DNA from: Candidatus Binataceae bacterium | GTDB lineage: Bacteria > Desulfobacterota > Binatia > Binatales > Binataceae | Length of the DNA stretch: 24,000 nucleotides | Assembly (NCBI GenBank): GCA_035262365.1 | Contig: DATFSZ010000118.1 | Span: forward strand, 16,374 to 40,373 | Direction: 5' to 3' | Part shown: one piece after another, positions 3,454 through 21,412 of the stretch | Layout: the number at the start of each line of letters is the position of its first letter | Position numbering within the stretch: the stretch's first letter is position 1 | Position numbers and translations under genes: made by a program | The notes under the pieces: generated by a model | Database searches by the model: none | The model's input: only the letters and a program-made list of their open reading frames with translations | Told to the model about the DNA's origin: nothing

Positions 3454-3517
3454 GGTGGATCAGGCGACCCACCCCGCCAGCCACAAAAATGCGCAGAGTA
3501 TCTGGAACGCGCTGCTT

Positions 3518-5443: not shown

Positions 5444-6442
5444 CTACCTGGCGGGGGCGGCGCCGATCATCCGATAGTAGTTGACGGCGTCGCTCAAAGC
5501 CGTGTCGATGGACCCGGGATCGTAGCCCAACTCGCGCCCGGCCTTGGTGTGGTCGAAGAACATCTTCTTGTGCGCCATCCGCACCTCGGTCAGGCTGGCG
5601 CGCGGCGGCCGCCGGGTGATGCGGCGCGAGACGAAATCGGCGCCGAGCGCGAACCCCAGCGCCACGTGGTATGGAATTCTCAACCGCGGCGCCGGCCTGC
5701 CCGAAATGAAGGCGAGCCGCTCAAACAACTGGCGCAAGCTGAGGTTCTCGCCGCCCAGGATATATTTCTCGCCCAGCCGGCCTCGTTCCGCGGCCAGCAG
5801 ATGCCCTTGCGCGCAATGGGCTACGTCAACCAGGTTGAGCCCGGTATCGAGATAGGCAGGCATTCGCCCGTTGAGAAAATCGACGATGACACGCCCGGTC
5901 GGCGTTGGCTTGTAGTCCAGCGCGCCGATCGGAGTCGAAGGGTTCACCACCACCACTGGGACGCCTTCGCGCGCGGCGGCCAACGCCGCCTGCTCCGCCA
6001 GGAACTTGGAGCGCTTGTAGGGACCGACCATGTCATCGAGCCTGACAGGAGTATCCTCGGTGCCCGAGGCTCCCTTGGGAACGCCGAGCGCGCCAACCGT
6101 GCTGGTATGGATTACGCGGCCGACCTGGTGGCGGCGCGCGGCGGCCAGGACATTGCGCGTGCCCTGTACGTTGGTCGCATACATCGGGGCCTCATCGATC
6201 ACCCACAGGCGGTAGTCGGCTGCGACGTTGTAGATCTCATCGCATCCGCGGGCCGCTTGGGCCACTGACTCCGCATCGCGCAGGTCGCCGATTACGTGGT
6301 CGCAGTCCACTCCCTCAAGCGCGCGTACATCGGCGCCGGCCCTGACCAGGACGCGCACGTGGTCGCCGCGATTCACCAGGGCGCGCGCAACGTAGCATCC
6401 AACAAAACCATTGCCGCCCGTGACCAGCGACGTTCTGGGCAT
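5444..6442 (-). CDS. hpnA: Hopanoid-associated sugar epimerase/NAD-dependent epimerase-dehydratase HpnA, 332 aa
   Basis: LVTGGNGFVGCYV Rossmann motif and the AADYRLW...YATNVQGTRN block as in HpnA-family proteins. The start lies 6 nt after the hpnE stop. Confidence 0.85.
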   Translation of the reverse strand: MPRTSLVTGGNGFVGCYVARALVNRGDHVRVLVRAGADVRALEGVDCDHVIGDLRDAESVAQAARGCDEIYNVAADYRLWVIDEAPMYATNVQGTRNVLAAARRHQVGRVIHTSTVGALGVPKGASGTEDTPVRLDDMVGPYKRSKFLAEQAALAAAREGVPVVVVNPSTPIGALDYKPTPTGRVIVDFLNGRMPAYLDTGLNLVDVAHCAQGHLLAAERGRLGEKYILGGENLSLRQLFERLAFISGRPAPRLRIPYHVALGFALGADFVSRRITRRPPRASLTEVRMAHKKMFFDHTKAGRELGYDPGSIDTALSDAVNYYRMIGAAPAR

Positions 6443-6448
6443 AGGAAA

Positions 6449-7858
6449 CTACTCCAGCACTGGCACTGGCGAGACGCGTCCGACCCGTTTTTGCACCGCG
6501 TCGGCGGCGCCGCGCCCGGAAACCACGGCGCTTTCGATCGTCGCTGGCAAACCGGTTTGGATCCAATCGCCGGCCAGGAACAGGTTGTCGATCGGCGTGC
6601 CTGCGCCCGGTCGCAATTGATGGGACTCGCAATCGGGTGCGATGGTCGCCTGCTTCTCTTTGATCACCAGCGCCTTGACCAGCTTGGCTTCACGCGAAGC
6701 AGGTATCATACGATGCAGATCCTCGAGCACCACGTCGAGCAATTCCTCGTTGGACTTGTCCACCAGCGCGCGGGCGCCGCTGATGACGAAGCTCAGGTAG
6801 CCGCCCTGCTCCCCGCCGCGCTCCTCGAAGATCGCGCGCTTGTTGAAAAGCCATTGGGTGGTCGAGCCGATAAAGCCGACAAAGGCGCAGTCGGTCACGT
6901 CGCGATCGAGCCATACATGAACGCAAATGATCGGGGAGGGTTTGAGCTGCGCCAAGCGCGCGAAGAAGGGATTCTCGCGCATCGCCCCCGACAGCATCGC
7001 CAGCAGCGCGCCGGCGGGAACAGCGGCGACAAAGTTCGCCGCCTCAAGCTTCTTGCCGTCGCGCAGCCGCACGCATCCCACCGTGTGATCGCCGTCCATT
7101 TCCAGGGTTTCGACCCCCATGTGCGGCGCGACAAAGCCGCCGCGTTCGCCGATGAAGTCTTCGGCGGCCTGGCAATAGAGGTCGCTCAAACCGACGGTCG
7201 AGTACACAAAAGCCGAGTCGCGGCGGCGGCCAAAGAAGGCCCGTTTCCACACTTCGGCCAGGAGCGCCGCCGAGGCCTGGTCCGGCTCTTCGTTGAGTGT
7301 GGCGATAGCGAGCGGGAACCAGAAGCATTTGCAGGCGTTATCTGACTGGCGCAGGCTCTTGAGCATTTCCGTAACGGTGGTGTTCTCAAGCCGCTGGCGC
7401 CGGAAACGGCCCAGGCCCATCATCCAGGCCCCGGCCATCAGGACCGAGGCTCGCTCGCCGAGGCTCAGCATCGAATAGCCTATCAGCGCCGACACCATGT
7501 GGAGCGGCCCCGGCAGCCTTCCGGTCTTCAGCCGCCCGCGTTTGCCGCCGGGCGCGATCATTTCCATCTGCAACCGCTCGCGAAACACCAGCTTGTCGTA
7601 CGTGCCGATTTTTTTCAAAAAGTCGAGCGTCTGGGTGTAGCACCCCATCAGCACGTGCTGGCCGTTGTCGACCCAGTCGCCGCCTTCGGGATCCTGGAAG
7701 GAGTAAGCACGCCCGCCCAACTTGGGCTTGCGTTCCAGCACCGCCACCCTGAAACCCGCCTCGGCGAGCGCCACTCCCGCGCTGAGTCCCGCGAAACCGC
7801 CGCCAATTACCACCACGTCCCGCGGATCGGGCATCACGGTGCGATCAAGTTCGGGCAC
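6449..7858 (-). CDS. hpnE: Hydroxysqualene dehydroxylase (squalene-associated FAD-dependent desaturase) HpnE, 469 aa
   Basis: VVVIGGGFAGLSAGVALAEAGFRVAVLERKPKLGGRA FAD-binding fold and amine-oxidase-like length. Lies between hpnD and hpnA. GTG start at 7858 is preceded by GGGAGG (7871-7866) at 7-nt spacing. 14-nt overlap with hpnD. Confidence 0.88.
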   Translation of the reverse strand: MPELDRTVMPDPRDVVVIGGGFAGLSAGVALAEAGFRVAVLERKPKLGGRAYSFQDPEGGDWVDNGQHVLMGCYTQTLDFLKKIGTYDKLVFRERLQMEMIAPGGKRGRLKTGRLPGPLHMVSALIGYSMLSLGERASVLMAGAWMMGLGRFRRQRLENTTVTEMLKSLRQSDNACKCFWFPLAIATLNEEPDQASAALLAEVWKRAFFGRRRDSAFVYSTVGLSDLYCQAAEDFIGERGGFVAPHMGVETLEMDGDHTVGCVRLRDGKKLEAANFVAAVPAGALLAMLSGAMRENPFFARLAQLKPSPIICVHVWLDRDVTDCAFVGFIGSTTQWLFNKRAIFEERGGEQGGYLSFVISGARALVDKSNEELLDVVLEDLHRMIPASREAKLVKALVIKEKQATIAPDCESHQLRPGAGTPIDNLFLAGDWIQTGLPATIESAVVSGRGAADAVQKRVGRVSPVPVLE

Positions 7859-8771
7859 GCCTCAACCTCCCGCTGGCCCACGCCCGACCGACCAGAAAGA
7901 TCTTGTGCGGCGCGGACAACCTAAACTTCCCATCCATTACACGATAGCGCGACTTGACGATGCGCTGCAGCAGGGCGCTGTAAATCAGCCGCATTGCCTC
8001 GGCAGTCAGCAGGCTGGCACGATCCTCATCGGGCAACGCGGCCTCGGCCACCCGGTAAAATTCCCGTGCGCGCCGCGCCTGGAATTCCATCAGGCGCTCA
8101 AATCGCTCGCTGTGCTGCCCGCTCAGCAATTCTTCTTCCTTGACCGCGAAACGCTCGAGGTCCTCCAGCGGCAGGTAGATTCGTCCGCGCCCGGCGTCCT
8201 CGCGTACGTCCCGAATTATGTTGGTGAGCTGAAAGGCGAGGCCAAGGTTCTCGGCATAAGTGCGGGCCTGCGGATTGCGGTAGCCGAAGATCTCGATACA
8301 GATCAGTCCCACCGCCGACGCGACGCGATAGCAGTACAGCCGCAACTCGGCGAAGGTACCGTAGCGCTTGCGTATGAGGTCCATCTCCACGCCGTCGATG
8401 ATTTCCTCGAAGTAACGCCTGGGAATTGCAAAACGGCGCACGCTGTCAGCCAGGGCACGCGAGATGGCGCGCGTCGGAGCACCGTTGTAAACGTGCTCGA
8501 GTTCCTCGCGCCAGCGCTGGAGCAAAGCCGCCGGCTCGCGCACTTCCTCATCGTCCGCGATATCGTCGACAAAGCGGCAGAATGCGTACGTCGCGTAAAG
8601 CGCGCGGCGGCGTTGCGCGGGGAGCAGCTTGAAGGCGTAGTAGAAATTGGAGGAGGACTTGCGAGTGATTTTGGCGCAGCGCGCGAAGTCCGCTGCCAGG
8701 CCAGCGTAAAAATCCGTCAGGGCGCCGATCTCGTCGGCCCGCTCAAACACCGACCCTGCCTCGCAGCGCAT
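7845..8771 (-). CDS. hpnD: Presqualene diphosphate synthase HpnD (squalene/phytoene synthase fold)
   Basis: NFYYAFKLLP, Asp-rich FCRFVDDIADD and NIIRDVREDAGRGRIYLP motifs (PF00494 expected). Start is uncertain: ATG 8771 (29-nt overlap with hpnC) or GTG 8750 (GAGG 8 nt upstream, 8-nt overlap). The GTG at 8870 given by the ORF track is unlikely. Confidence 0.85.
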   Translation of the reverse strand: MRCEAGSVFERADEIGALTDFYAGLAADFARCAKITRKSSSNFYYAFKLLPAQRRRALYATYAFCRFVDDIADDEEVREPAALLQRWREELEHVYNGAPTRAISRALADSVRRFAIPRRYFEEIIDGVEMDLIRKRYGTFAELRLYCYRVASAVGLICIEIFGYRNPQARTYAENLGLAFQLTNIIRDVREDAGRGRIYLPLEDLERFAVKEEELLSGQHSERFERLMEFQARRAREFYRVAEAALPDEDRASLLTAEAMRLIYSALLQRIVKSRYRVMDGKFRLSAPHKIFLVGRAWASGRLRRART

Positions 8772-9654
8772 TCCAGCCCAGGCGCAAGTAGTCCGCCTTG
8801 CGAAGCTCGGGACGACGGCGAAAGACGTCGTAGCCGGCCGCCTCGATCGCGCGCAGGATTGCCAATCCACCGCCGGCGAACATCAGGATGTCGCGCCGCA
8901 GCCGCGGTCCGACCAGAGCGTGCAGCGCTGCGCCGGAGCTGAGCAGGCCGCGCGCAAACTCCACCTCATGGCGCATCAGCGCGAGGAATCGTGCATTGAT
9001 CGCGCCCGCGCTCAGTTCTTGTATTGAATAATTAAATCGGGCGATATCCTGGAGCGGCAAATAGACCCGCCCCTTTTCCAGATCGATCGCGATATCCTGC
9101 CAGAAGTTGGCCAGTTGCAGTCCGCTGCAAATGCGATCCGACAACTCCTGCCGCCGGGCATCGCCGAACCCGAACAGATATAGCACCAGCCGTCCCACCG
9201 GGTTGGCCGAATAGCGCGCGTATCCGAGCAAGTCGTCCATTGTCTCGAAGCCCTTGAAGTTTACATCGGAGCGAAACGCCCGCAGTAAATCAGCAAAGGG
9301 CTGGCGCGGTATATCGAAGCGGCGCACGGTGTCGGCCAATGCCACGAACACCGGATGGCGCGGGGCGCCGGCATAGGCAAGGTCCAGCTCCCGCTCCCAT
9401 CCGTCGAGCTTGGCCAGGTCATGTTCTTCGTCTGCAAAGTCATCGGCGATCCGGGCGTAGGCGTAGATTGCGTACATGTGCGGGCGCATCGCGCGCGGCA
9501 TGAGCCACGACGCAATAGTGAAATTCTCATAATGAGATCGCGCCAGATGCGCGCAGAACTCGTATGCCTGCTCCAGACTAACCTGCGCTTGCCCCGTCTC
9601 GTCCGGTCCCGCGGCACAGGCTTCCGGCTCGTGATTTATTTGGGACTGGCCCAT
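8743..9654 (-). CDS. hpnC: Hydroxysqualene synthase HpnC (squalene/phytoene synthase fold), 303 aa
   Basis: HYENFTIASWLMP, YARIADDFADEE and ANFWQDIAIDLEKGRVYLP motifs. Paired with hpnD and hpnE as in the three-gene HpnCDE squalene route. ATG 9654 has no obvious SD. Confidence 0.88.
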   Translation of the reverse strand: MGQSQINHEPEACAAGPDETGQAQVSLEQAYEFCAHLARSHYENFTIASWLMPRAMRPHMYAIYAYARIADDFADEEHDLAKLDGWERELDLAYAGAPRHPVFVALADTVRRFDIPRQPFADLLRAFRSDVNFKGFETMDDLLGYARYSANPVGRLVLYLFGFGDARRQELSDRICSGLQLANFWQDIAIDLEKGRVYLPLQDIARFNYSIQELSAGAINARFLALMRHEVEFARGLLSSGAALHALVGPRLRRDILMFAGGGLAILRAIEAAGYDVFRRRPELRKADYLRLGWNALRGRVGV

Positions 9655-9754: not shown

Positions 9755-10909
9755 TTAGGCGGCCATCAACTCCCGAGTCATGGCGCGCGCCCAGCTATCG
9801 GTCTCCAACACGTCTTCGAGGCTGCGCGCGCCGCGTCCATGATGACGCCCCATCACGGTTTCGATATGACGGGCAATCTCCAGGAAGCGAATCTTCTTTG
9901 CCAGAAATCCGGCTACCAGCTCCTCGTTGGCGGCGTTTAGGCAGGCGGGCATCGTACCACCCGCGGCGAGCGCCTCGTACGCCAGGCGCAGACAAGGGAA
10001 GCGGCCCAGGTCGGGCTGCTCGAAAGTCAGTGTGCCGCAATCCACCAGCGACAGAGGCTGCAGATGGTCCATCGGCAGCCGTTCGGGAAACGCCAGCGCA
10101 TAGGCGACGGGAATCGCCATATCGGGTATCGCCATCTCGGCCAGCACCGAGCCGTCGATCATCTCGACCATGGAGTGGACGATGCTCTGCGGATGGATAA
10201 TGACAGAGATCCGGGAGGAGTCCAGGCCGAACAGCCAGCGCGCCTCGATCACTTCCAGTCCCTTGTTCATCAGGGTGGCGGAATCGATGGTGATCTTCGC
10301 GCCCATCTGCCAGGTCGGATGCTTGAGCGCGTCAGCCACGGTTACCGTCTCAAAGCGATCGATCGGCAGGGTGCGAAACGGACCACCGGACGCGGTCAGG
10401 ATGATTCGTTTGACGGTGGAGCGCCGGCGCCCCTCGATACATTGGAACAGCGCGTTATGTTCGCTGTCCACCGGCAGCAGGCGCACCTTGTGGCGCTCGG
10501 CCGCACGCGTTACCACTTCGCCCGCAACCACCAGCACTTCTTTGTTGGCGAATGCGATATCCTTGCCCGCCTCAATAGCGCGCAGCGTCGGGCGCAGCCC
10601 CAGCGCACCCACCATCGCCGAGACCACCAACTGGGCGGCGGGCCAGGTGGCAACGGAAATGGCGCCATCGAGTCCAGTCACTATTTCCACGCGCTCCGCG
10701 CCAAGCAGCTCTTTAAGCCGCAAGGCTGCCTCGCCGTCGGCCACCGATACCAGCTCGGGGCGGAAGCGGCGAATCTGCTCGGCCAGCAGTTCCACGTTGC
10801 GCCCGGCGGCGATGGCGCCGACACGGAATTGCTCGCTGAAGCGGCTGACGACATCGAGCGTGGTTACACCAACTGAGCCGGTGGATCCCAGAACCGCAAT
10901 CGTCTTCAT
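9755..10909 (-). CDS. dxr: 1-deoxy-D-xylulose 5-phosphate reductoisomerase, 384 aa
   Basis: MKTIAVLGSTGSVG NADPH loop, LLPVDSEHNALFQC, LTASGGPFR and HPTWQMGAKITIDSATLMNKGLEVIEA are all canonical Dxr blocks. ATG lies 6 nt after the shc stop. Confidence 0.93.
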   Translation of the reverse strand: MKTIAVLGSTGSVGVTTLDVVSRFSEQFRVGAIAAGRNVELLAEQIRRFRPELVSVADGEAALRLKELLGAERVEIVTGLDGAISVATWPAAQLVVSAMVGALGLRPTLRAIEAGKDIAFANKEVLVVAGEVVTRAAERHKVRLLPVDSEHNALFQCIEGRRRSTVKRIILTASGGPFRTLPIDRFETVTVADALKHPTWQMGAKITIDSATLMNKGLEVIEARWLFGLDSSRISVIIHPQSIVHSMVEMIDGSVLAEMAIPDMAIPVAYALAFPERLPMDHLQPLSLVDCGTLTFEQPDLGRFPCLRLAYEALAAGGTMPACLNAANEELVAGFLAKKIRFLEIARHIETVMGRHHGRGARSLEDVLETDSWARAMTRELMAA

Positions 10910-10915
10910 GGCCAG

Positions 10916-12880
10916 TTACCCCGCCGCTTTCTCCTTAAGCCGCGCTTTAAATCTACCCAGCGCCATCAAGGGGAAATAGTGGGGGTACATGTAGTAGCGC
11001 AAATAGAAATGATTAGGGAAGCCCGTGCCCGTGGATTCGGTCTCGTCCCACGTGCCCTGATCGTTCTGGCGCTCCAGCAGCCAATCCACTCCGCGCGTTA
11101 CGCTATCGCTAATCGCGTCTTCGCCGGCCAGCAGGCCAATCAGCGCCCATGCGGTCTGGCTCGCGGTGCTCGTGCCGCGCCCGCGCCATTCGCGATCCTT
11201 GTCGCTCAGCGGACTCTCGCCCCATCCGCCGTCCGAGTTCTGGTGGTCCTTGAGCCACTGCACGGCGCGCCGGATCCACGGCTGCTCCGGATCGACTCCG
11301 ATTGCGCGCAAGCCGCCCAGCGCCGAGAAGGTGCCATAGATGAAATTGACACCCCATCTGCCCCACCACGAGCCGTCCGCCTCCTGCGCCGCCTTGAGCC
11401 AGTCGATCGCGCGGCGCGCCACCGGATGCTCCGCTCGATAGCCGACCGCCGCCATCATCTCGAGCACCCGCCCGGTCAAATCGGGGCAGCTCGGATCAGT
11501 CACCGCCTCGACGTCGGCGAACGGCAGATGATTGAGCCAGGTGGAGTTGTTGTCGGCGTCGAAGGCGGCAAAACCGCCGTCGCGGGACTGCATCCCCATC
11601 ACCCAGTTGGACCCCGCGCTGATCGACCGCTCGCGCGCCGCCGCGTCGGCAAACCGCGTCGCCGCGAGCACGCACAGGATAACCGCCGAGTCGTCCACGT
11701 CGGGATAACAGTCGTTGTAGAACTCAAACGCCCATCCACCGGGTTCGAGCTTGGGCCGCTTAATCGACCAGTCGCCGCGTTTGAAGATTTGATGGTCGAT
11801 AAGCCAGCGCGTGACTTTGACCATCGACTCATCGTCGGGACTGATTCCCGACTCCAGCAGCGCCTTGGCCGCCAGGCCGGTGTCCCAGTTGGGCGATACG
11901 CAGGGCATGTACAGAATCTTGTCGCCCATGTCCCATATCAGTTCGCGGCTGGCGTCGATCGCCTTTTTGAGCACCGGATGATCGGTGCGGTAGCCGAGGC
12001 CCTTGAGCGCCATCGCGCTGAGCAGGTAGCAAGGCTCGATTCCGCCCCACGAGCCGTTGGCCTCCTGATGCTCCAGGATCCAGTTCTCCGCCGCGCGCAG
12101 CGCGCGCACACGCAGCCCCTGGATCGGATGGCGGTTGTAGCCGCGCAGCATCGCGTCGGTAAGGTTTAATATTCCGCGCAATGAGAAACGGCTTTTTGCG
12201 GCCGGCGGGCGAAAGCGCGTAAAGTGCGGCGGCTCGATATAAAGTTCCAGGACGCCAGCTTCGTAACTGACCTTGACCACCGGCTTCGCCGCTTGCAGCA
12301 GCATCAGGCCGAACAGCGTGCCGCGCGCCCAGGATGACAGCTCATAGACGTTGACCGGCGACCAATTGGGCAGCAGGCAGATTTCCACTGGCAGCGACGT
12401 GGTCGCCTCCCACGGAACCTGGCCCATCGCGGCCAGGTAAAAGCGCGCCAACGAGCCGCACTTCGCCACCCCGCCGCGGGAAAGAATCCAGCGCCGCGCC
12501 TGCGACATCTCCTCGTCGCCCGCGCGCATCCCGGCCAGCTTCAGCGCGAAGTACGCCTCGATACTGGTAGAAAGGTAGCCCTCGCCGCCCGGAAACAGAC
12601 TCCAACTACCGTCGGGCTGCTGGAGTTCCAGGATGTGCTTCTTGAGCTTGGCCTCCTCCTGGGGGTCCACACAGTCCATGAAGTGCGTGAAGATAACATA
12701 CTCGGCGTTCATCTCCGCGTTGGCTTCCAGCGGAGCATGCCAGTAGCCCTCAGGCTTCTGCAGCTTGAGCAGCGACTGTTGGGCACGGCTGATGACCTGA
12801 TCAAGGCGCAGGCCAAGTTGCCCGTTGGTGACTGCCGCAACCCCCGCCGCCGCGCCGTCAATTTGAATCGTTTCGCTCAT
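10916..12880 (-). CDS. shc: Squalene-hopene cyclase, 654 aa
   Basis: Catalytic Asp-rich motif DVDDSAV (DxDD). Multiple QW repeats (QQPDGSW, QEANGSWGG, QSRDGGF, QEADGSWWGRWG, QNSDGGWGE, QNDQGTW). Length typical of SHC. Confidence 0.93.
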   Translation of the reverse strand: MSETIQIDGAAAGVAAVTNGQLGLRLDQVISRAQQSLLKLQKPEGYWHAPLEANAEMNAEYVIFTHFMDCVDPQEEAKLKKHILELQQPDGSWSLFPGGEGYLSTSIEAYFALKLAGMRAGDEEMSQARRWILSRGGVAKCGSLARFYLAAMGQVPWEATTSLPVEICLLPNWSPVNVYELSSWARGTLFGLMLLQAAKPVVKVSYEAGVLELYIEPPHFTRFRPPAAKSRFSLRGILNLTDAMLRGYNRHPIQGLRVRALRAAENWILEHQEANGSWGGIEPCYLLSAMALKGLGYRTDHPVLKKAIDASRELIWDMGDKILYMPCVSPNWDTGLAAKALLESGISPDDESMVKVTRWLIDHQIFKRGDWSIKRPKLEPGGWAFEFYNDCYPDVDDSAVILCVLAATRFADAAARERSISAGSNWVMGMQSRDGGFAAFDADNNSTWLNHLPFADVEAVTDPSCPDLTGRVLEMMAAVGYRAEHPVARRAIDWLKAAQEADGSWWGRWGVNFIYGTFSALGGLRAIGVDPEQPWIRRAVQWLKDHQNSDGGWGESPLSDKDREWRGRGTSTASQTAWALIGLLAGEDAISDSVTRGVDWLLERQNDQGTWDETESTGTGFPNHFYLRYYMYPHYFPLMALGRFKARLKEKAAG

Positions 12881-13097
12881 GACAAATTTACTCTTGGCTC
12901 GACGCGCGTTGGCCGCAGTGGAAATGCGCCGATCAACCTCACCTTGGGCCTCTCGCTCTTCGGGGAGAGGGGATATAAAGAACAGTGCTTTGTATTCTTC
13001 ACTTACAGGCCAGGCATCCTAATGTGGGGAACCTCCAAGACCTCATTTTATTCCTTCCCCCAAGATGAGGTTTCTCTCTTCAACAAGGCGTCCTGTC

Positions 13098-13121
13098 TCC
13101 TCTCCCCGACAACGGAGAGGA
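13098..13121 (-). terminator. Hairpin 15 nt downstream of the Zn-ADH stop (possible end of the tetR-hpnH-ispA-ADH unit)
   Basis: 8-bp perfect stem tcctctcc (13098-13105) / ggagagga (13114-13121), 8-nt loop. No clear U-tract follows on the minus strand, so terminator function is uncertain. Confidence 0.3.
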
Positions 13122-13136
13122 CGAGGCTGAGAACGG

Positions 13137-14189
13137 TCAAGGAATGATCGCGCACTTCAAAACGTCCCCGCGCTCCAGCAGGTCGAACACTTGCGGCAAC
13201 TCGCTGAGCCGCTTGCGCTCATTGATAATTCTGCCCACGCCCAGCTTGCGCTCGGCCAGCAAGTCGCGCGCGCCCCTGACGTCTTCGGGCCGGAAATGGA
13301 ACGGCGCGATAAGCGTCAGACTATCGTAATGCATCCTGCGCGTATCCAACTGCACCGAGGTACCGGCCGCGCACCCGCCGAAAAACACGACGCGTCCACC
13401 GCGCCGCACGCAGCGCAAGGCACTCTCCCATCCCGAGACCTGTCCCGTCGCCTCGATCACGAGGTCGGGACCATAGCCCCCGTTTAGCGCGGCCGCTTTG
13501 GCCGCAACGTCCTCGCTGCGCGCGTCGATTACCTGATCGGCGCCCATCTCGGCGGCCCATCGCAGCCGGGAATCGCCCCGTCCCGCGACCACCACGCTGC
13601 CTGCGCCCGCGGCCTTCAGCAGGATCACGTGCAGCAGACCGAAAGCTCCCGCGCCCAACACCATGCAGGTTTCAAATCGCTGCGGACACGCGATCGCCTG
13701 CGCGTGGACCACGCAAGCCAGCGGTTCGAGCAGCGCGGCCTCCTCGAAAGGAAGGCCGGCCGGTTTCTTGAACACGTTGCGCGCCACCACATGAGCCGGC
13801 AGCAGCAGGAAATCGGCATACGCGCCCATCACCATCGTGTCGATCACGCTGATACACAGGCTTTCCTGGCCACGGCCGCAGAAAAAGCAATTACCGCATG
13901 GCGCCGTCGGCGCCGCCATCAGTTCATCGCCGGGCCTGAAACCTTCGACACCCGTGCCCACCTCGGCCACCACGCCGGAGAACTCATGGCCAAAGGGCAT
14001 CGGAAAGCTGAACAGAGGATGGCCGCGGCGATAGAACTTCAAATCGGTGCCACAACTGAGCGCGCATTTGATTTGCAGCAAGATCTCACCGGGCCCCGGG
14101 TGCGGCGCCACGGTCGGGCGCAATTCAAAATGCCGCGGCCCAACCAGGACTGCCTGGCGTGGCGCGGCGGGAGTATCGCCTGCGCTCAT
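13137..14189 (-). CDS. Zinc-dependent medium-chain alcohol/polyol dehydrogenase (sorbitol/threonine dehydrogenase-like), 350 aa
   Basis: GHEFSGVVAEVG catalytic-zinc signature, CGNCFFCGRGQESLC structural-zinc cysteines and VLGAGAFGLL NAD(P) loop. Its ATG overlaps the ispA stop (ATGA at 14186-14189). Confidence 0.85.
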   Translation of the reverse strand: MSAGDTPAAPRQAVLVGPRHFELRPTVAPHPGPGEILLQIKCALSCGTDLKFYRRGHPLFSFPMPFGHEFSGVVAEVGTGVEGFRPGDELMAAPTAPCGNCFFCGRGQESLCISVIDTMVMGAYADFLLLPAHVVARNVFKKPAGLPFEEAALLEPLACVVHAQAIACPQRFETCMVLGAGAFGLLHVILLKAAGAGSVVVAGRGDSRLRWAAEMGADQVIDARSEDVAAKAAALNGGYGPDLVIEATGQVSGWESALRCVRRGGRVVFFGGCAAGTSVQLDTRRMHYDSLTLIAPFHFRPEDVRGARDLLAERKLGVGRIINERKRLSELPQVFDLLERGDVLKCAIIP

Positions 14190-15151
14190 AGCGAGCGCTC
14201 CACCACGAAGATGGCGAGTTCGCGCAGCGCCCGCGCGCGATCGTCGAAGGCGGACAGCGCCGAAATCGCGCGCTCCTTGAGATCGTGCGCAAACCGGCGC
14301 GACTTCTCCACACCCATCAGCGCCGGGTAGGTGGCCTTGCCGTGCGCATCGTCCTTGTGCGTGCGCTTACCGAGCTGCTCGGTGGATGCGGTTACGTCCA
14401 GCAGATCGTCGATCACCTGAAAAGCCAGACCCAGCGCGCGCCCGTATTCGGACAGGGCATCGATCTGCCGGCTGTCGCCGCCGCCCAACATCCCGCCACC
14501 GCGCACGGCGGCAAGAAACAGCGCCCCGGTCTTGCGCGCGTGAAGGTACTCAAGCGTCGCCTGGTCTGTCGCCTTGCCCTCGGAGAGAATATCGAGCGCC
14601 TGCCCGATAACCATTCCCGGAGAACCGGCCGCCTGCGCAAGTTCTGCCACCACGTCCAGCACCACCGCCGCGGGCACGCGCCCGTGCGGCGAGCGCGCCA
14701 GGACTCTGAAGGCGTCGGTCAAAAGAGCGTCACCCGCCAGCGTCGCCATGGCTTCGCCGTACACCTTGTGATTGGTGGGCCGGCCGCGGCGCAGGTCGTC
14801 GTCGTCCATGCAGGGCAGATCGTCATGGATCAGAGAGTAGGTATGGATCATCTCCAGGGCGCAGGCTAGCCCCAGTGCGTCGTCAGGATGGCCCCCGACC
14901 GCCTCGCACGCCGCGATAGCCAGGACCGGCCGCAGGCGTTTGCCGCCTGCTAACAGACTGTAGCGCATCGCTTCAATCAGTTGTGATCCGGGCTCTTCGT
15001 GTGCGGCCACGGTGCGATCGAGCGCGCCCTCCATGAGTTGAGCGCGTTCCTTGAGGTAGCGTTCGATGTTGAAATCCGCCGCGCTGCCGTGGCGCGGCGT
15101 TTTGGTCTCCTGATTGGCCTTCGGGGCCGGGCGTGAGCCGGAATTAGGCAT
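14186..15151 (-). CDS. ispA: Farnesyl diphosphate synthase (type II short-chain trans-prenyl diphosphate synthase)
   Basis: IHTYSLIHDDLPCMDDDDLRRGRPTNH (FARM with a 2-residue insertion and Tyr at position -5, as in E. coli IspA) and FQVIDDLLD (SARM). ATG 15151 preferred; TTG 15166 possible. The N-terminus is about 25 residues longer than E. coli IspA. Confidence 0.82.
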   Translation of the reverse strand: MPNSGSRPAPKANQETKTPRHGSAADFNIERYLKERAQLMEGALDRTVAAHEEPGSQLIEAMRYSLLAGGKRLRPVLAIAACEAVGGHPDDALGLACALEMIHTYSLIHDDLPCMDDDDLRRGRPTNHKVYGEAMATLAGDALLTDAFRVLARSPHGRVPAAVVLDVVAELAQAAGSPGMVIGQALDILSEGKATDQATLEYLHARKTGALFLAAVRGGGMLGGGDSRQIDALSEYGRALGLAFQVIDDLLDVTASTEQLGKRTHKDDAHGKATYPALMGVEKSRRFAHDLKERAISALSAFDDRARALRELAIFVVERSL

Positions 15152-15184
15152 CGATTGTCTCAGCAAACGGCAGCGGACTTTCTC

Positions 15185-15220: not shown

Positions 15221-16219
15221 TCAAGACACGTAGTAGCGCACCATTTTCCACGAATCCTTGAGGTTCTTGCCGAAATCCAGCGCCACGGTGCCCTCGAAGC
15301 CCGAATGCATCTTGCAGTCGCGGCAGCGAATGTCCTGCTTGGTCCGGTAGAACTCCCAATCGATAGCCTGATGCAGCTCGTCGAAGGTGCGATAATGGCC
15401 GTTGGTGATCAGGTAACAGGGTCCCTTCCATCCCTGCGGATTGCGCGTCACCGTGGTCCACGGGCTGCACTGCAGATCGCGCTCCCCGGTGAGATACTCC
15501 AGGTAAATCGGGGTGTTGATGATCTTGTGGTCCGCGGCGAGTCTCTTGACGCGTTTGAATTTCTCGGGCGTTTCGTCGGATTTGAGATAAATGTCGTTGG
15601 TCAGCACCTGGTAGTGATAGCCGGGGCTGACCAGCATACCGTCCACCCCGAACGAAGTCAGCAACTCGACCAGCTCCTCGATCTCCTCGGCGCTGGTTTC
15701 ACGGAAGACCGTGGTATTTGTCTGCACCCAGTAGCCTTTTTCCTTGAGCATCTTGATCATGCGCACGCAGGTATCGAAAACGCCGTCGCGGTCAACCACG
15801 CGGTCGTGCGTCTCGCGCATCCCGTCGATATGCACGTTGAAGCTCAGGTACGGGCTGGGCGGCACCTGCTTGACGAACCGCTCCAGCAGCAGGGCGTTGG
15901 TGCAGATCATCGTGTGGCGGCGCCGCTCGATAAGGCCCTTGGTCAAGGGCACGATATGCTTGTAGATGAGCGGCTCCCCGCCGCAGATCGAAACGATAGG
16001 AGCGCCCGCTTCCTCGGCGGCCCCCAGCGCTTCCTCCAGCGGCATCTGGTCGCGAATCGTGTCCTTGTACTCGACAATGCGCCCGCAGCCGACGCAAGCT
16101 AGATTGCATGCGTGCAGCGGTTCGAGCATCAGCACGATGGGAAAATACGTGTTCCCGGCGCGTTTTTGCCGCGTCATGTAACGCGCCAGGTCGGTCATCA
16201 GTTTGAGCCGCATACGCAT
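15221..16219 (-). CDS. hpnH: Adenosylhopane synthase, hopanoid-associated radical SAM protein HpnH, 332 aa
   Basis: YFPIVLMLEPLHACNLACVGCGRI (CX3CX2C radical-SAM cluster in the context typical of HpnH). Conserved length. Start lies 18 nt after the tetR stop. Confidence 0.88.
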   Translation of the reverse strand: MRMRLKLMTDLARYMTRQKRAGNTYFPIVLMLEPLHACNLACVGCGRIVEYKDTIRDQMPLEEALGAAEEAGAPIVSICGGEPLIYKHIVPLTKGLIERRRHTMICTNALLLERFVKQVPPSPYLSFNVHIDGMRETHDRVVDRDGVFDTCVRMIKMLKEKGYWVQTNTTVFRETSAEEIEELVELLTSFGVDGMLVSPGYHYQVLTNDIYLKSDETPEKFKRVKRLAADHKIINTPIYLEYLTGERDLQCSPWTTVTRNPQGWKGPCYLITNGHYRTFDELHQAIDWEFYRTKQDIRCRDCKMHSGFEGTVALDFGKNLKDSWKMVRYYVS

Positions 16220-16237: not shown

Positions 16238-16876
16238 TCAATCGGAAGTGGGTTCGGCCTCGGGCGCCGCACTCGATTCTTCGCCGAACAGCAGTCCGTA
16301 GAGCATAACCAGGGCGCTTTCCAGGTTGTCTTGAGCCTGGCTCATGAACACCAGGTTGATCAGCAATCCGTTGAGCGCCGCCAGCACGAAATTCGCCGTG
16401 ACCTCGGGCTGATTGCTGCAGGAGCACAGCCCCTTTTCCTGTGCCAATCGAATCCGGTCTGTCAGCAACGCTTGATATAAATCGTAAAGACGGCGGATTT
16501 GTTCCGTAAACGCTTCGGGCATCTCTTCACCGCTCATGAACCGGCGCAGGAAGAAACCTACCGAACTCGCGTTTTCGCGCACGAAATTCACGTAGCCGCC
16601 AATCAGTTTCTTGATCTGCTCGCGTGCATCGAGTTTCTCCGACTCTTCGGCGAAGTCGATAACATAAGGCTCCAGCAGTTTGTTCAGGACCGCCAGAAAC
16701 AGCTCTTCCTTGGTCTTGAAATGCCAGAAGATCAGCGCCTTGCTGACCTTGGCCTCACGCGCCACTTCCGACATTGAAGTCTCGTGAAAGCCGCGGGTGG
16801 CGAACAGCCGAATTCCCGCCTTCAGAATCTCATCGCGCGAATCCTGGGACTGCGATTGCCCTCCCGCCGTAACCAT
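16238..16876 (-). CDS. TetR/AcrR family transcriptional regulator, 212 aa
   Basis: N-terminal HTH ILKAGIRLFATRGFHETSMSEVAREAKVSKALIFWHFKTKEELF (PF00440 expected). ATG 16876 is preceded by GGAAGA. Confidence 0.88.
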   Translation of the reverse strand: MVTAGGQSQSQDSRDEILKAGIRLFATRGFHETSMSEVAREAKVSKALIFWHFKTKEELFLAVLNKLLEPYVIDFAEESEKLDAREQIKKLIGGYVNFVRENASSVGFFLRRFMSGEEMPEAFTEQIRRLYDLYQALLTDRIRLAQEKGLCSCSNQPEVTANFVLAALNGLLINLVFMSQAQDNLESALVMLYGLLFGEESSAAPEAEPTSD

Positions 16877-17133: not shown

Positions 17134-18192
17134 TCAGCGGCTGGATCCCGTTTCTGGGTCCTGCTCGATGTTTTCTCTCCCTCCGCTAAGTGAAATCGGC
17201 GTTCCTGCGGAGGCCTGCGAGGTCTTGGCCGCTAGCAGGATCGCCAAGGCCGTCTGCGCTTCACGTTGGTTTTGCCTCGTTATCCGACCTTGGGGCCCTT
17301 GCGCGATGGCCGCCTCGAACTCTTCCGCGAGCGCGGCGAACCAGGCCGGATGATAGGAGTTGTCCGGCTCTTCGATTACCGGCAAATCCTCACTCCCCCT
17401 GGAGCGCCGGGTGAGACGGATCGTGCTGTCCTCGATTTCCAGCATTCCCTCATCGCCATAGAGTATCGCCGAGGTGCGGCGTGCAGGAGCGCGCCAGGAA
17501 AGATGGATGTGACCGAGCCTGCCGCCGGAGAAGGTCGCAGTTAAATCGGCGACCTCATCGACGACGCCGGGCGGAAACACCTCCAGGCGCGCCCCGATGG
17601 TAAGCGGCGCCTGTCCACCCATCAGCCATTGCATCAGGTAGAACACGTGCCAGCCGTGATCGATCAGGATTCCTCCGCCGCCGATCACCGGGTCGACTCG
17701 CCACGGCGCTCCGCCCGCCTGCTGCGTCCGAAGCCGCGTCAGCGCGCAGTAGCTGACTCCGCCCAGCACGCCGGCGCTAATCGCTTCGGATGCGCGCCGA
17801 TAGACGGGGGAATGCTTCCAGTTGTGTACGCAGAACAGCGTCCGCCGATGTGACGATCCGAGCGAGTAAAGATCGTCCAGCGTTTTGAGATCGAGACACA
17901 GCGGCTTCTCAACCAGCACGTGGGCGCCGGCTTCGAGCGCGGCGCGCGCTGCGCCGGCATGATAGGCAGGCGGGCTGGCGATATCGACGAAGTCGGGGGA
18001 TTCGCCCGCCAACAGCAGCCCCAGATCCTCATAAACACGGACGTTTTTGATCGCGCGCAGTGCAGCCTGCCGCCGCTCTGCTATGGGCTCGTGGATCGCG
18101 ACGATTTCAACTTCAGGCCGCCGGCGCCATCCCGGCAGATGACCCTGCTCGGCAACCTGTCCGAAACCGGAAATTGCGCCGCGCAGTTTCAT
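17134..18192 (-). CDS. Gfo/Idh/MocA family NAD(P)-dependent oxidoreductase
   Basis: MKLRGAISGFGQVA Rossmann start and the VLVEKPL motif. ATG 18192 preferred because the family normally starts just before beta-1; the ORF track start TTG 18219 would add 9 residues. Confidence 0.82.
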   Translation of the reverse strand: MKLRGAISGFGQVAEQGHLPGWRRRPEVEIVAIHEPIAERRQAALRAIKNVRVYEDLGLLLAGESPDFVDIASPPAYHAGAARAALEAGAHVLVEKPLCLDLKTLDDLYSLGSSHRRTLFCVHNWKHSPVYRRASEAISAGVLGGVSYCALTRLRTQQAGGAPWRVDPVIGGGGILIDHGWHVFYLMQWLMGGQAPLTIGARLEVFPPGVVDEVADLTATFSGGRLGHIHLSWRAPARRTSAILYGDEGMLEIEDSTIRLTRRSRGSEDLPVIEEPDNSYHPAWFAALAEEFEAAIAQGPQGRITRQNQREAQTALAILLAAKTSQASAGTPISLSGGRENIEQDPETGSSR

Positions 18193-18278
18193 AGGAGTTC
18201 TCTGTTCTCGCTCGAACAATCATTCGTGGGAGAGGCTAAGGGTGAGGCCGACTGATGCACTTCAAGCAAAGTGATCGC

Positions 18279-18308
18279 GCTCTGCGCCGCCCAAAGGTGG
18301 CGCAGAGC
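18279..18308. repeat. Perfect 10-bp inverted repeat (hairpin) in the LLM-Gfo spacer
   Basis: gctctgcgcc (18279-18288) / ggcgcagagc (18299-18308), 10-nt loop. Confidence 0.6.
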
Positions 18309-18344
18309 AGGGCTGCCGCCAGGTCGCCGGCGCCACGCTCGGTT

Positions 18345-18372
18345 GTCATTCCTCGCTTGCGCTCGGAATGAC
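18345..18372. repeat. REP-like hairpin of the GTCATTCC...GGAATGAC type
   Basis: gtcattcc (18345-18352) / ggaatgac (18365-18372), 12-nt loop tcgcttgcgctc. It resembles a short palindromic intergenic element that I recall being dispersed in many soil-bacterial genomes. Confidence 0.5.
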
Positions 18373-18408
18373 ACGCCTGGCGAGCGTTGCCATGAGCCTG
18401 CATTGCGC

Positions 18409-19296
18409 TTAAACCAGGTATTTCCGCGCCAGGTCTTCCAACTCTTTTTGCCACGTGGCGGGTTCGAGTGCGAAGCCCTTGCGGTACAGCGCTTCGGTAC
18501 CCACCACGATACGCTGGCATCCGGCGGCCTCGTATTCCTCGTAGGTCCGCTTGATGTCCTCCTGCTCGAAGGGCCGGAACATCGTGACATCCATCTTGGC
18601 GAAATCGCGACCCGCTTCGGTGCACATCTTTTTGAGAGTCGCAAGGCTGGCCGCGAGTTGCGCCGGCTTAAGCCGCAGCGGCATCCAACCGTCGCCAATC
18701 TCGACCACGTCGCGCAGCACGCGGTCGGGTCCCTTGGCTCCTCCGTTGGCACCAATCAGTACGGGCGGATGAGGCTTCTGGACCGGCTTGGGAAAGCTTC
18801 TGACAGCGGGGAACTTTATATACTTACCCTCGAAGCTCGCCTCGGGCTTGGTCCACAACTCCTTCATCGCGCGGATGCACTCGCGCGTGACAGGCCATCG
18901 CTTGGCGAACTCCACACCCATGATCTCCGTTTCATCCGCCAACCATCCCGCACCGATCCCAAACCACATGCGGCCGCCGGAGAAGTAGTCCACCGTGGCA
19001 ACTTCCTTGGCCAGCACCATCGGGTTGTGCTCGGGAACCAGGCAGATGCCCGTCATCAGCTTGATGCGGCTGGTGACGGCCGCGGCGATTCCCAGCAGCA
19101 CGAACGGGTCGGGCATGTGCGAGTACCAATCCGGAATCTCACCGCCACCGGCCGGATAAGGTGTTCTATGTTTGACGGGAATGATGGCGTGTTCAGGAAC
19201 TATCAAAGCATCGAAGCCCAGTTCCTCCACCCTGCGAAACATCAGGTCAGGCTTCGCGGTCCGTTCATTGGCGAATACCGATACGCCGACTTTCAT
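18409..19296 (-). CDS. LLM-class oxidoreductase, probably F420-dependent (Rv2161c-like subgroup), 295 aa
   Basis: MKVGVSVF...EELGFDALIVPEH...LVPEHNPMVLAKEVATVDYFSGGRMWFGIGAGW resembles the short F420-type LLM proteins. GGAGG lies 8 nt upstream of ATG 19296. The cofactor cannot be decided by eye. Confidence 0.78.
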   Translation of the reverse strand: MKVGVSVFANERTAKPDLMFRRVEELGFDALIVPEHAIIPVKHRTPYPAGGGEIPDWYSHMPDPFVLLGIAAAVTSRIKLMTGICLVPEHNPMVLAKEVATVDYFSGGRMWFGIGAGWLADETEIMGVEFAKRWPVTRECIRAMKELWTKPEASFEGKYIKFPAVRSFPKPVQKPHPPVLIGANGGAKGPDRVLRDVVEIGDGWMPLRLKPAQLAASLATLKKMCTEAGRDFAKMDVTMFRPFEQEDIKRTYEEYEAAGCQRIVVGTEALYRKGFALEPATWQKELEDLARKYLV

Positions 19297-19469
19297 TTCA
19301 TAAACCTCCGCGCTCTCCTCGGTGCTGACTCGATGTCATAGCGTAAACTCGGCTAATCAGACTACCGCCCGGCCATTGCGGTAGTGCAGTCAAACTCTGA
19401 AATGATTTTCGCTTCCGGGGGTACTTTAGCCGCGATTTCGAAACCGTCGCGTCTGCAGCACAGCAATCA

Positions 19470-19958
19470 TCAGCTCCACTTGAAAAATTCGTTGGCGTAA
19501 ACGAACCGGCCCACGCCCGCCGCCCTGGCGCATTGCTCGTCGACTTCCTGGTCGCCGACCATCGTGGAGCCCGCCAGATCGACGCCGTAGGTCTGCGCCA
19601 GTTCAGTGACCATCCCGGCCGCCGGCTTGCGGCATTCGCAGCCATCCTCAGGACCATGCGGGCAGATCTCCCACGCGGTCAGGATTCCGCCCAATTGCAG
19701 ATCCAGCTGCGCGATCGCGGCTTCGACCTGCTCGCGGGTGAAGCGGCCGCGTTTGATTCCGCGTTGATTGGTCACGATGAAGATTAAATGATCGCGAACC
19801 GGGCGCAGGGTTTCCGCAACGTTGGGCAGTATCTTGACCGTGACCTTGCCGCTGCGGTCGGCGGGCAGGTCGCGATTCTCATCTAGTTCGACCAGGGTTC
19901 CGCCCAAGTCGAAGAACAATCCAAGGTTTCCGGCATTCTCCGCCATCGCCGCGCTCAA
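19470..19958 (-). CDS. HAD-IIIA hydrolase, GmhB-like (D,D-heptose 1,7-bisphosphate phosphatase family) with atypical motif I
   Basis: VTNQRGI (motif II), the zinc loop CPHGPEDGCECRKP characteristic of GmhB, and MVGDQEVDEQ (motif IV). Motif I reads FFDLGGTL instead of DxDGT. TTG 19958 overlaps the aminotransferase stop (TTGA); ATG 19946 is an alternative start. Confidence 0.8.
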   Translation of the reverse strand: MSAAMAENAGNLGLFFDLGGTLVELDENRDLPADRSGKVTVKILPNVAETLRPVRDHLIFIVTNQRGIKRGRFTREQVEAAIAQLDLQLGGILTAWEICPHGPEDGCECRKPAAGMVTELAQTYGVDLAGSTMVGDQEVDEQCARAAGVGRFVYANEFFKWS

Positions 19959-21316
19959 GCCTCCCGCCAGTTCAGATGGTCGCGCACGTAAGTGAAGACT
20001 TCTTCCAGAATCGCCACGCCGGCCGCGGCCTGTTCCTCCGTGATCACCAGGGGCGGGTTAATGCGAACGCGAGGGAAGTAGCCCATGATCAGCAATCCGC
20101 GCTTAAGCGCCTCCTTGAAAATGACCTCGGTCACCCGGTGGCTCAGTTCTTCCTTGGTGCGGCGATCACGCACCAAATCGATTCCGATCAACAGACCGCG
20201 TCCGCGCACGTCTCCTACGAACTCGAATTTTTCCTTGAACATCTCCAGGCTTGCCAACAGCTTGGCTCCGACGGCGCACGAGTTGTCCGTCAAGTGCTCC
20301 TCCTGGATCGCGCGCAACGTCTCCCCGACAGCTACCGCCGCCAGCGGATTGCCGCCGTAGCTGGACGAGGAAGCGCTGGGCTTGGCGAAGGGCTTGGCCT
20401 GCGCAACCTTCTCGGTCATCAGTACGCCCGACACCGGGAAGCCCGAACCCATCCCCTTGCCGACGGTCATGATGTCCGGACGGACGCCGGTATGCTCCAC
20501 GCCCCACATCTTTCCGGTGCGCCCAAAGCCGGTGATCATCTCGTCGGCAATCAGCACGGCGTCATTTTCCCGCGCGATCTCTTTGACCGCCGGCAGGAAC
20601 TCATCGGGCGGAATCACGTTGCCAGCGGTACCTTGAAAAGGTTCGACCAATACAGCGGCGATAGCGCCCGCCGAACTGTTTTTGATCTGCTTGCGCGCGA
20701 ACTCGACGCAGAACATGCCGCATCCAGGATATTCAAGCTTGAATGGACATCGGTAACAGTCCGCGTAGGGCACGAGATGCTGTCCGCCGGGAAGCGGGCC
20801 ATAGCCCTGCTTGGACTCGTCGCCTATAAGCCCGATAACACCGCCGGTCTTGCCGTGGAAACCGCCCCAGAAACCGACGACCTCGTGCTTACCGGTAAAT
20901 GAGCGTGCCGCGCGCAACGCAGCCTCGACCGCTTCGGCGCCTCCGCTATAGAGATGGAAGCGCCTAAGCGGCGCCGGTGCGGCTTCAGCCAAAGCCTTGA
21001 AGGATTCGGCGCGCTCCGGAGTCGCAAACGTACCGACCATCAGGCGCGCTGCCTGTTCGGAGAGCGCTTTGGACATCGCGGGATGCCCATGGCCCAGGCT
21101 GGCGACCGCAACCCCGGCAAAGAAATCCACGTAAACGTTGCCGTCCACATCGGTCAACGTGGCGCCTTCGCCATGGTCAAAGGCAACGCCGGCCAGCGAG
21201 GAAATCCGCTGGCGGCCAGGGGCAAGGTAGTGTTCTTCTTGTTCGAACAGGGCGCGGGAGCGGGGTCCCGGTACCGAGGTTGTTACAGAAGGAAGTTTGG
21301 TCTTCTTTGCTTTCAT
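19955..21316 (-). CDS. Class III (omega) pyridoxal-phosphate aminotransferase, GabT/HpnO-like, 453 aa
   Basis: PGPRSRALFEQEE...DVDGNVYVDFFAGVAVASLGHGHP, LIADEMITGFGRTGKMW and the PLP lysine in MTVGKGMGSGFP (PF00202 expected). Confidence 0.88.
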   Translation of the reverse strand: MKAKKTKLPSVTTSVPGPRSRALFEQEEHYLAPGRQRISSLAGVAFDHGEGATLTDVDGNVYVDFFAGVAVASLGHGHPAMSKALSEQAARLMVGTFATPERAESFKALAEAAPAPLRRFHLYSGGAEAVEAALRAARSFTGKHEVVGFWGGFHGKTGGVIGLIGDESKQGYGPLPGGQHLVPYADCYRCPFKLEYPGCGMFCVEFARKQIKNSSAGAIAAVLVEPFQGTAGNVIPPDEFLPAVKEIARENDAVLIADEMITGFGRTGKMWGVEHTGVRPDIMTVGKGMGSGFPVSGVLMTEKVAQAKPFAKPSASSSSYGGNPLAAVAVGETLRAIQEEHLTDNSCAVGAKLLASLEMFKEKFEFVGDVRGRGLLIGIDLVRDRRTKEELSHRVTEVIFKEALKRGLLIMGYFPRVRINPPLVITEEQAAAGVAILEEVFTYVRDHLNWREA

Positions 21317-21332
21317 CGGATGAATGAGAAGG

Positions 21333-21412
21333 GAGAAGCGAGAATTGAAAAACGGGAGAAAGAGCTTCGCGAGACCGGATTCTCAACAAGGGTGCTGGTT
21401 TTCTCGCTTCTC
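21333..21412. repeat. 12-bp perfect inverted repeat GAGAAGCGAGAA / TTCTCGCTTCTC flanking the ATP-grasp/aminotransferase spacer
   Basis: 21333-21344 pairs with 21401-21412 (56-nt loop containing a smaller gagaa/ttctc stem, 21356-21360 with 21380-21384). The right arm overlaps the ATP-grasp stop codon. The left arm ends 16 nt before the aminotransferase ATG. Confidence 0.6.

Follow-up and report, generated by a model that had tools for sequence, protein, structure and literature searches.

A zinc-dependent dehydrogenase coupled to ispA in the Binataceae hopanoid operon, a candidate lineage-restricted ribosylhopane reductase

The 24,000-nucleotide stretch of Candidatus Binataceae DNA analysed here (the window) carries a hopanoid biosynthesis operon, in which a gene for a zinc-dependent dehydrogenase from the family of medium-chain dehydrogenases/reductases (MDR), here called ADH, lies on the minus strand at positions 13137-14189 between ispA and shc. 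Conserved synteny, a four-nucleotide overlap with ispA and a base composition like that of its neighbours mark this gene, as far as sequence can tell, as a fixed and co-translated member of the Binataceae hopanoid operon. A functional link of ADH to hopanoid biosynthesis is probable and well supported, because the coupling is conserved and the synteny recurs in independent lineages. The more specific proposal, that ADH is a ribosylhopane reductase restricted to certain lineages (Binataceae, with related MDR pairs in Acidobacteriota), is advanced tentatively.

The bacteriohopanepolyols rank among the major membrane lipids of bacteria and are in wide use as geological biomarkers. Reduction of ribosylhopane to bacteriohopanetetrol (BHT) is known only as an activity of cell-free extracts, reported to depend on NADPH. 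The enzyme was still unassigned in November 2025 (PMC12583986), and a 2026 review draws the step as non-enzymatic (PMC13459092); both agree with the statement of a first-pass annotation of the window that no gene has been assigned to it.

The dehydrogenase gene and its operon

The genes on the minus strand follow the order tetR-hpnH-ispA-ADH-shc-dxr-hpnD-hpnC-hpnE-hpnA, with the following features.

13137-14189, minus strand: ADH, zinc MDR dehydrogenase of the 'A1' family (defined below), 350 amino acids, ATG start; from Pfam and motifs
14186-14189, minus strand: ATGA start/stop overlap of ispA and ADH, read in the sequence, with GGAG 8 nt upstream
14186-15166, minus strand: ispA, farnesyl diphosphate synthase; NF045485, 360 bits against a cut-off of 275
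15221-16219, minus strand: hpnH, adenosylhopane synthase, short form of 332 amino acids; TIGR03470, 383 bits against 225, with Radical_SAM and DUF3463
16238-16876, minus strand: TetR-family regulator, first gene before the hpnH-ispA-ADH block; PF00440, E 5.7e-20; position kept in Binataceae loci
12881-13136, minus strand: intergenic spacer between ADH and shc, 256 bp, of lower G+C (0.535)
10916-12880, minus strand: shc, squalene-hopene cyclase; TIGR01507, 732 bits against a cut-off of 431
9755-10909, minus strand: dxr; NF009114, 523 bits
8743-9654, minus strand: hpnD-like gene of the squalene/phytoene synthase family; PF00494, in conserved order
7845-8870, minus strand: hpnC-like gene of the squalene/phytoene synthase family; PF00494
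6449-7858, minus strand: hpnE, hydroxysqualene dehydroxylase; TIGR03467, 414 bits against a cut-off of 283
5444-6442, minus strand: hpnA, hopanoid-associated extended short-chain dehydrogenase/reductase (SDR), a rival candidate oxidoreductase; TIGR03466, 438 bits against 368

The first-pass annotation had placed the ATG of ADH across the ispA stop codon, and reading of the sequence confirms this. The junction reads ...gagcgctcgctATGAgcgca, with the ATG at 14189-14187 overlapping the ispA TGA at 14188-14186; written as ...ggagcgctcgctATGAgc..., it shows a four-base overlap with the open reading frame (ORF) at 14186-15166. By this ATGA overlap, ADH is predicted to be translationally coupled to ispA. 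The same annotation took ADH for the last gene of its unit. This did not hold up: ADH is probably internal to a long operon, because no terminator-like site precedes shc and the corresponding gaps in annotated relatives measure 9-58 bp. A scan of the coding strand from hpnH to shc for promoters and terminators found nothing except one weak site at the hpnH stop codon. Against the 9-58 bp of the relatives, the 256-bp gap between ADH and shc is unusual. It holds long inverted repeats, its folding compared with shuffled sequences is not significant (z -1.61), no further copy of it was found among the sequences compared, and an Rfam search of the window returned no match. The gene hpnG is absent from the window; its place in related loci is on the opposite strand, some 9 kb past shc.

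The arrangement is conserved throughout the Binataceae loci surveyed. Both scans used here, one of GTDB species genomes and one of metagenome loci centred on HpnH, are samples, and counts refer to the matches listed. At least 21 Binataceae-type loci were found in GTDB species genomes, with ADH identities of 63-83% and the order hpnH-ispA-ADH-shc wherever the contig allows; the metagenome scan added five further loci, and a contig binned as 'Acidoferrum' one more. Wherever a Binataceae-type locus is of sufficient length (21 from GTDB, five from metagenomes, and L001, L003 and L092), it has ispA-ADH-shc, at ADH identities of 60-83%, and two long contigs with 66-68% identical ADH share the same 20-gene neighbourhood. 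The four-nucleotide NTGA overlap and an upstream GTGGAGCG motif were computed in 25 of 30 Binataceae-type loci, and the motif is visible in two of the remaining five. For Binataceae, then, the synteny survey suggested by the first-pass annotation finds ADH with hpnH-ispA and shc in about 30 loci. The G+C content at third codon positions (GC3) of ADH is 0.77, in line with that of the neighbouring genes, and there is no sign of recent transfer. A protein identical to ADH is on record in an NCBI Candidatus Binataceae metagenome-assembled genome (MAG; P0001), and the best 120 matches to the protein are Binataceae throughout.

Protein family and relatives in other hopanoid clusters

The earlier description of a complete MDR-family dehydrogenase is borne out by the protein. 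In the intact 350-residue ORF, GHEFSGVV occupies residues 67-74, the Rossmann motif GAGAFG occupies residues 179-184, and the four-cysteine motif CGNCFFCGRGQESLC supplies Cys98, Cys101, Cys104 and Cys112 as ligands of the structural zinc. The GroES-like catalytic domain and the Rossmann cofactor domain that define a zinc MDR are both present (ADH_N, PF08240, E 4.6e-24; ADH_zinc_N, PF00107, E 1.2e-24), and the Pfam glucose dehydrogenase C-terminal domain also matches (38.8 bits against a cut-off of 34.9). Cys46, His68, Glu69 and Glu155 are the catalytic zinc ligands. Catalytic and structural ligands align with the ligand positions of L-threonine 3-dehydrogenase (TDH) and are invariant or nearly so in family alignments of 25 and 69 sequences; ADH keeps all of them together with the family-invariant residues. 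Among MDR enzymes, a preference for NADP(H) is indicated when the acidic residue ending strand beta-2 is lost and a basic one lies beside it. At this site ADH has Ala-Gly-Arg where the NAD-dependent TDH has Ser-Glu-Pro, and its cofactor site is predicted to be of NADP(H) type because the acidic residue is absent and a basic neighbour is present.

No curated NCBIfam model was reached by ADH at its cut-off. The best matches are TDH, below the equivalog cut-offs (159.5 bits against 458.35 for TIGR00692; 156.1 against 380 for NF003808), and scyllo-inosose 3-dehydrogenase IolM (NF041097; 134.2 bits against 450). Relatives carry the automatic JGI label sorbitol (L-iditol 2-) dehydrogenase; the human and sheep enzymes score 127-129 bits, and no curated model of this function is reached. 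The curated models of galactitol-1-phosphate and idonate dehydrogenase also lie far below cut-off. Clear orthology to a characterised threonine, sorbitol or butanediol dehydrogenase had been named beforehand as a finding that would speak against a hopanoid role; the threonine and sorbitol enzymes are rejected, with scores far under the cut-offs. Among solved structures, scores range from 113 to 150 bits, the best being those of archaeal TDH (about 150) and sorbitol dehydrogenases (about 128). Much closer are uncharacterised proteins with 40-50% identity and 270-360 bits, which came from a scan of 1.84 billion cluster representatives.

The name A1 denotes an MDR family defined in this analysis by a hidden Markov model (HMM) and signature residues, and A2 a second, distant MDR. 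The A1 signature comprises CGTDLKx[YF]xRGH, with CGTD[LV]K and RG-H variants, HY..T, FH.TP and a C-terminal lysine (Lys345). Binataceae ADHs carry it and score 352-484 bits on the A1 HMM and 192-233 bits on the A2 HMM, while A2 members score 160-269 bits on the A1 HMM. In a neighbour-joining (NJ) tree with 100 bootstraps, Binataceae ADHs are monophyletic in 99 and A2 forms a separate clade in 99. The other 59 GTDB loci among the matches listed, with 42-53% identity, belong to Blastocatellia, Nitrospirota, Latescibacterota, Gemmatimonadota, other Binatia and others. Clustering of their ORFs finds an A2 MDR directly downstream of A1 in most, with a cupin as well in 15, and an isolate, Desulfuromonas versatilis, has exactly A1-A2-cupin (L175, 10001-12647). 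This A1-A2 operon of an NADP-type and an NAD-type zinc MDR occurs in D. versatilis and about 40 other loci of many phyla, with no conserved further neighbours.

In the reverse direction, 80 metagenome loci centred on HpnH were searched by tblastn for any MDR. The figures below are lower bounds from a sample, and the loci called informative are those with 6 kb or more of flanking sequence and one or more further hopanoid genes.

HpnH at least 70% identical to that of the window (Binataceae type): 5 loci, 5 with an MDR; 3 informative, 3 of them with an MDR
HpnH 45-53% identical: 26 loci, 13 with an MDR; 16 informative, 11 of them with an MDR
HpnH below 44.5% identity: 49 loci, 2 with an MDR; 15 informative, 2 of them with an MDR

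Twelve of the loci with 45-53% identity show the order shc-hpnH-hpnA-(hpnG)-MDR-MDR-hpnD-hpnC, although L117 among them has just one MDR. The closest named relatives of these acidobacterial-type loci are Bryobacteraceae (Acidobacteriota) MAGs. Two MAG contigs (L173 and L174) have ispH-shc-hpnH-hpnA-hpnG-MDR-MDR-hpnD-hpnC with overlapping genes, the first MDR being 364-365 and the second 346 amino acids long. In acidobacteria, a cluster C of hpnA, hpnG and ug1 and a cluster A of ug2, hpnC, hpnD and hpnE have been described (Sinninghe Damsté et al., 2017; PMC5462960). The supplementary table of that paper lists ug1 as a Zn-dependent alcohol dehydrogenase of about 370 amino acids and ug2 as a Zn-binding one of about 350, both with function 'not established' (PMC5462960). 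The ug1 and ug2 positions are judged here on Bryobacteraceae-like MAG and metagenome loci. Full-length proteins at the ug2 position score 391-425 bits on the A1 HMM, inside the Binataceae range, so that the ug2-position MDR scores as a member of the A1 family, and the ug1-position protein groups with A2 in 90 of 100 bootstraps of the NJ tree.

Elsewhere, locus L165 has the order hpnH-hpnG-hpnA-hpnC-A2like-A1like, L136 has ispA-hpnC-A2like followed by the end of the locus, and in L099 an HpnH gene (393 bits) is followed 17 nt on by a core A2 MDR. This true HpnH (L099, 3104-5135) stands outside any hopanoid cluster, and its flanking ORFs, judged by eye from the translations, are Fur-like and universal-stress-protein-like. 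By the sequence scores, then, MDRs of the same broad family recur in hopanoid clusters, those of Acidobacteriota and of one further lineage or more. At the cofactor site, A1-type proteins (Binataceae, stand-alone, ug2 and L165) mostly have Gly or Ala followed by Arg or Lys, and A2-type proteins (A2, ug1 and the first L165 MDR) have Asp. From these contrasting residues, the pair appears to combine an enzyme of NADP(H) type with one of NAD(H) type, of which Binataceae would keep the former alone; neither the window nor the Binataceae loci contain a second MDR of the ug1/A2 type.

HpnH itself is of a short form of about 330 amino acids in Binataceae and in acidobacterial-type loci (L093-L123), and is called at about 368 amino acids in L173 and L174. 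The short forms are 45-53% identical between the Binataceae and acidobacterial types and 35-41% identical to proteobacterial and actinobacterial HpnH. This closer relationship suggests that the Binataceae and acidobacterial lineages share a related hopanoid gene set.

The proposed reaction and its alternatives

HpnH and HpnG make the polyhydroxylated C35 side chain, on which ADH would act. With NADPH it would reduce the carbonyl of open-chain ribosylhopane, either the C-35 aldehyde or that of a keto isomer, giving BHT, with substrate, reaction direction and cofactor as we infer them. The proposal fits because the step is without an assigned enzyme, the predicted cofactor is NADPH, in line with the NADPH dependence reported for the cell-free activity, and the family works on polyols.

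A number of observations count against it, and the first group concerns distribution. No MDR was found in 13 of the 15 informative hpnH loci of proteobacterial or actinobacterial type, nor in the annotated hopanoid clusters of Streptomyces, Mycetohabitans and Roseomonas. Groups whose hpnH loci lack an MDR include BHT producers. Among the loci screened and three reference clusters, ADH relatives are not present wherever hpnH/hpnG and BHT occur, and none of 32 hpnH-bearing plasmid or chromid records has a relative at E<=1e-30. C. thermophilum lacks ug2 and yet produces BHT (PMC5462960). That ADH could be the universal ribosylhopane reductase of all BHT-producing bacteria, an idea which draws on the step still lacking an assigned enzyme (PMC12583986) and on where the gene sits in one operon, is contradicted by this distribution and hardly credible. 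The first-pass proposal of ADH as the missing reductase therefore stands in part: it is a coupled hopanoid-operon gene with an NADP(H)-type site and the step is open, but it is not the general enzyme.

The second group concerns the closest relatives. No hopanoid gene lies within 10 kb in any of the 59 closest non-Binataceae loci among the matches listed, and Binataceae ADHs nest with stand-alone A1 proteins in 85 of 100 bootstraps of the NJ tree. Some A1 relatives occur in Blastocatellia MAGs; cultured Blastocatellia have neither hopanoids nor hopanoid genes (PMC5462960). These facts, and the retention of the family-invariant residues, favour a general sugar/polyol or other small-molecule dehydrogenase like that of the A1-A2-cupin modules, with no action on hopanoids. 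Such a role is nevertheless unlikely, since the position and the four-nucleotide coupling to ispA are kept in about 30 loci down to 60% identity, and A1/A2 MDRs lie near hpnG, hpnC, hpnD or hpnH in Acidobacteriota, L165, L136 and L099, which chance would hardly produce. The expected co-occurrence of relatives with hpnH is found in Binataceae, Acidobacteriota and L165, but fails in the 59 loci and in most proteobacterial and actinobacterial clusters. The Binataceae ADH clade is sister to ug2 in none of 100 bootstraps, so that the hopanoid association either arose more than once or is ancient and was often lost.

The third group concerns chemistry and position. The nearest characterised relatives (TDH, sorbitol dehydrogenase and ketose reductase) act on secondary alcohols or ketones, not aldehydes; the ADH gene adjoins ispA and shc, not hpnG; and alternative reductases are encoded in the cluster, namely HpnA, Gfo/Idh/MocA and F420-type luciferase-like monooxygenase (LLM) proteins in the window and an SDR beside hpnG in related loci. 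The evidence appears to fit aldehyde reduction and other side-chain redox chemistry alike. It is possible, if doubtful, that ADH is a hopanoid side-chain oxidoreductase with another reaction, such as redox at a secondary carbinol (e.g. C-34 epimerisation via a keto intermediate), carbonyl supply to the nearby class-III aminotransferase, or oxidation of a hemiacetal to a lactone. In lineages with two MDRs, A2/ug1 (NAD-type) and A1/ug2 (NADPH-type) would then form an oxidise-then-reduce couple. Pairing of NAD-type and NADP-type enzymes is typical of epimerising redox couples, e.g. IolG/IolW, and outside Binataceae the family is almost always paired in this way, Asp in one partner and Gly/Ala-Arg/Lys in the other. 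The polyol and secondary-alcohol dehydrogenases among the characterised relatives, the glucose dehydrogenase C-terminal match and the conservation of the class-III aminotransferase 6 kb upstream point in the same direction. However, a two-enzyme couple cannot operate in Binataceae, which carry A1 only, the analysis met no sign that these lineages make unusual BHT stereoisomers or lactones, and a single reduction is the sole step of the BHT pathway without a gene.

A role in the precursor block from farnesyl diphosphate to squalene, e.g. redox on a farnesyl- or squalene-derived alcohol or aldehyde, is improbable. A1-type genes do adjoin ispA in Binataceae and hpnD in the acidobacterial type, and the A1-like gene of L165 follows hpnC with one MDR between. 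However, ug1 overlaps the side-chain gene hpnG, in L099 an A2 MDR is tied to hpnH, another side-chain gene, and the HpnC/D/E route needs no pyridine-nucleotide MDR. In addition, ug2 was judged not essential for squalene synthesis (PMC5462960).

If ribosylhopane reduction is the reaction of ADH, a lineage-restricted enzyme would mean that the step to BHT has been solved differently across phyla. A wider and rather speculative model would have A1 (NADPH-type) and A2/ug1 (NAD-type) form a hopanoid side-chain module, with A1 as the first gene-encoded ribosylhopane reductase in Acidobacteriota, Binataceae and some others; other bacteria would use unrelated or unspecific reductases, and the stand-alone modules would act on a related 5-substituted ribose. 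Zn-dependent alcohol dehydrogenases in acidobacterial hopanoid clusters have been known since 2017 as ug1 and ug2 (PMC5462960), and a literature search found no other paper linking A1/A2 dehydrogenases to hopanoids. No paper found in the literature searches reports the occurrence in Binataceae, its connection to ug2 at family level, the pairing of A1 and A2 with contrasting cofactor motifs or a reductase hypothesis stated outright, and these are taken as new. The previously unnoticed Binataceae ADH is thereby tied to the acidobacterial ug1/ug2 of unknown function, and A1/ug2 and A2/ug1 become two concrete candidate families for the last step to BHT.

Neighbouring genes and comparison with known systems

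Beyond hpnA, a CruF-like membrane protein (PF04240, carotenoid 1,2-hydratase family; 2073-2978, minus strand) is kept in the Binataceae hopanoid cluster, and three unrelated metagenome loci (L102, L136 and L165) have homologues of it immediately upstream of hpnH or of hpnG-hpnH. The context suggests a candidate hopanoid-associated hydratase. Between hpnA and the CruF-like gene, the window holds two ORFs with Peptidase_S74 (endosialidase/tail-fibre chaperone) domains, of 129 and 572 amino acids (3057-5236, minus strand). In L001 and L003 hpnA and the CruF-like gene are directly adjacent, which marks the S74 segment as an insertion, some 2.4 kb long, that is particular to this genome. At 640-1983 (minus strand) the window encodes a 447-residue luciferase-like monooxygenase; in relatives, the CruF-like gene is followed instead by an SDR gene and hpnG in convergent orientation.

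Upstream of tetR-hpnH, a seven-gene cassette (17134-23789, minus strand) encodes a Gfo/Idh/MocA protein, an F420-type LLM (TIGR03619), a HAD-IIIA phosphatase, a class-III aminotransferase, a 276-residue protein of no family, a MobA-like nucleotidyltransferase and a HAD hydrolase. It is kept wholly or mostly in about nine Binataceae loci, with a CDP-alcohol phosphatidyltransferase beyond it in L001. It looks like a predicted system for head-group synthesis or activation, and its aminotransferase could be HpnO-like. The hopanoid clusters of Roseomonas and Streptomyces likewise adjoin cytidylyltransferase or CDP-alcohol transferase genes.

Compared with known enzymes, ADH has in common with TDH of Pyrococcus horikoshii (2dfv), sorbitol dehydrogenase (1pl6) and the NADP(H)-dependent ketose reductase (1e3j) an MDR fold, a catalytic zinc site of Cys-His-Glu and a structural zinc site of four cysteines. 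It differs from TDH and sorbitol dehydrogenase in its low scores, in the replacement of the acidic NAD-binding residue by Gly-Arg and in its unrelated genomic context. HpnA (TIGR03466) is, like ADH, an oxidoreductase of hopanoid clusters and is also present in the window, but has the SDR rather than the MDR fold and is far more widespread in such clusters. HpnA has been put forward for the conversion of ribosylhopane to BHT (PMC5462960), although, according to reports cited in that paper, Burkholderia can make BHT without it and Rhodopseudomonas lacks it. The stand-alone A1-A2(-cupin) modules have the signature and zinc ligands in common with ADH and, at 42-53% identity, contain its closest relatives found outside Binataceae, but hopanoid genes are absent from the 10 kb around them, and they usually include an NAD-type MDR and sometimes a cupin. 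The acidobacterial ug2 (PMC5462960) is, like ADH, a zinc MDR of about 350 amino acids inside a hopanoid cluster, with A1-family membership by score, an NADP-type motif and 36-40% identity to ADH. It is not an orthologue, as the tree places ADH with stand-alone A1 proteins and never with ug2, and the two occupy different positions, ADH in ispA-ADH-shc and ug2 in hpnG-ug1-ug2-hpnD.

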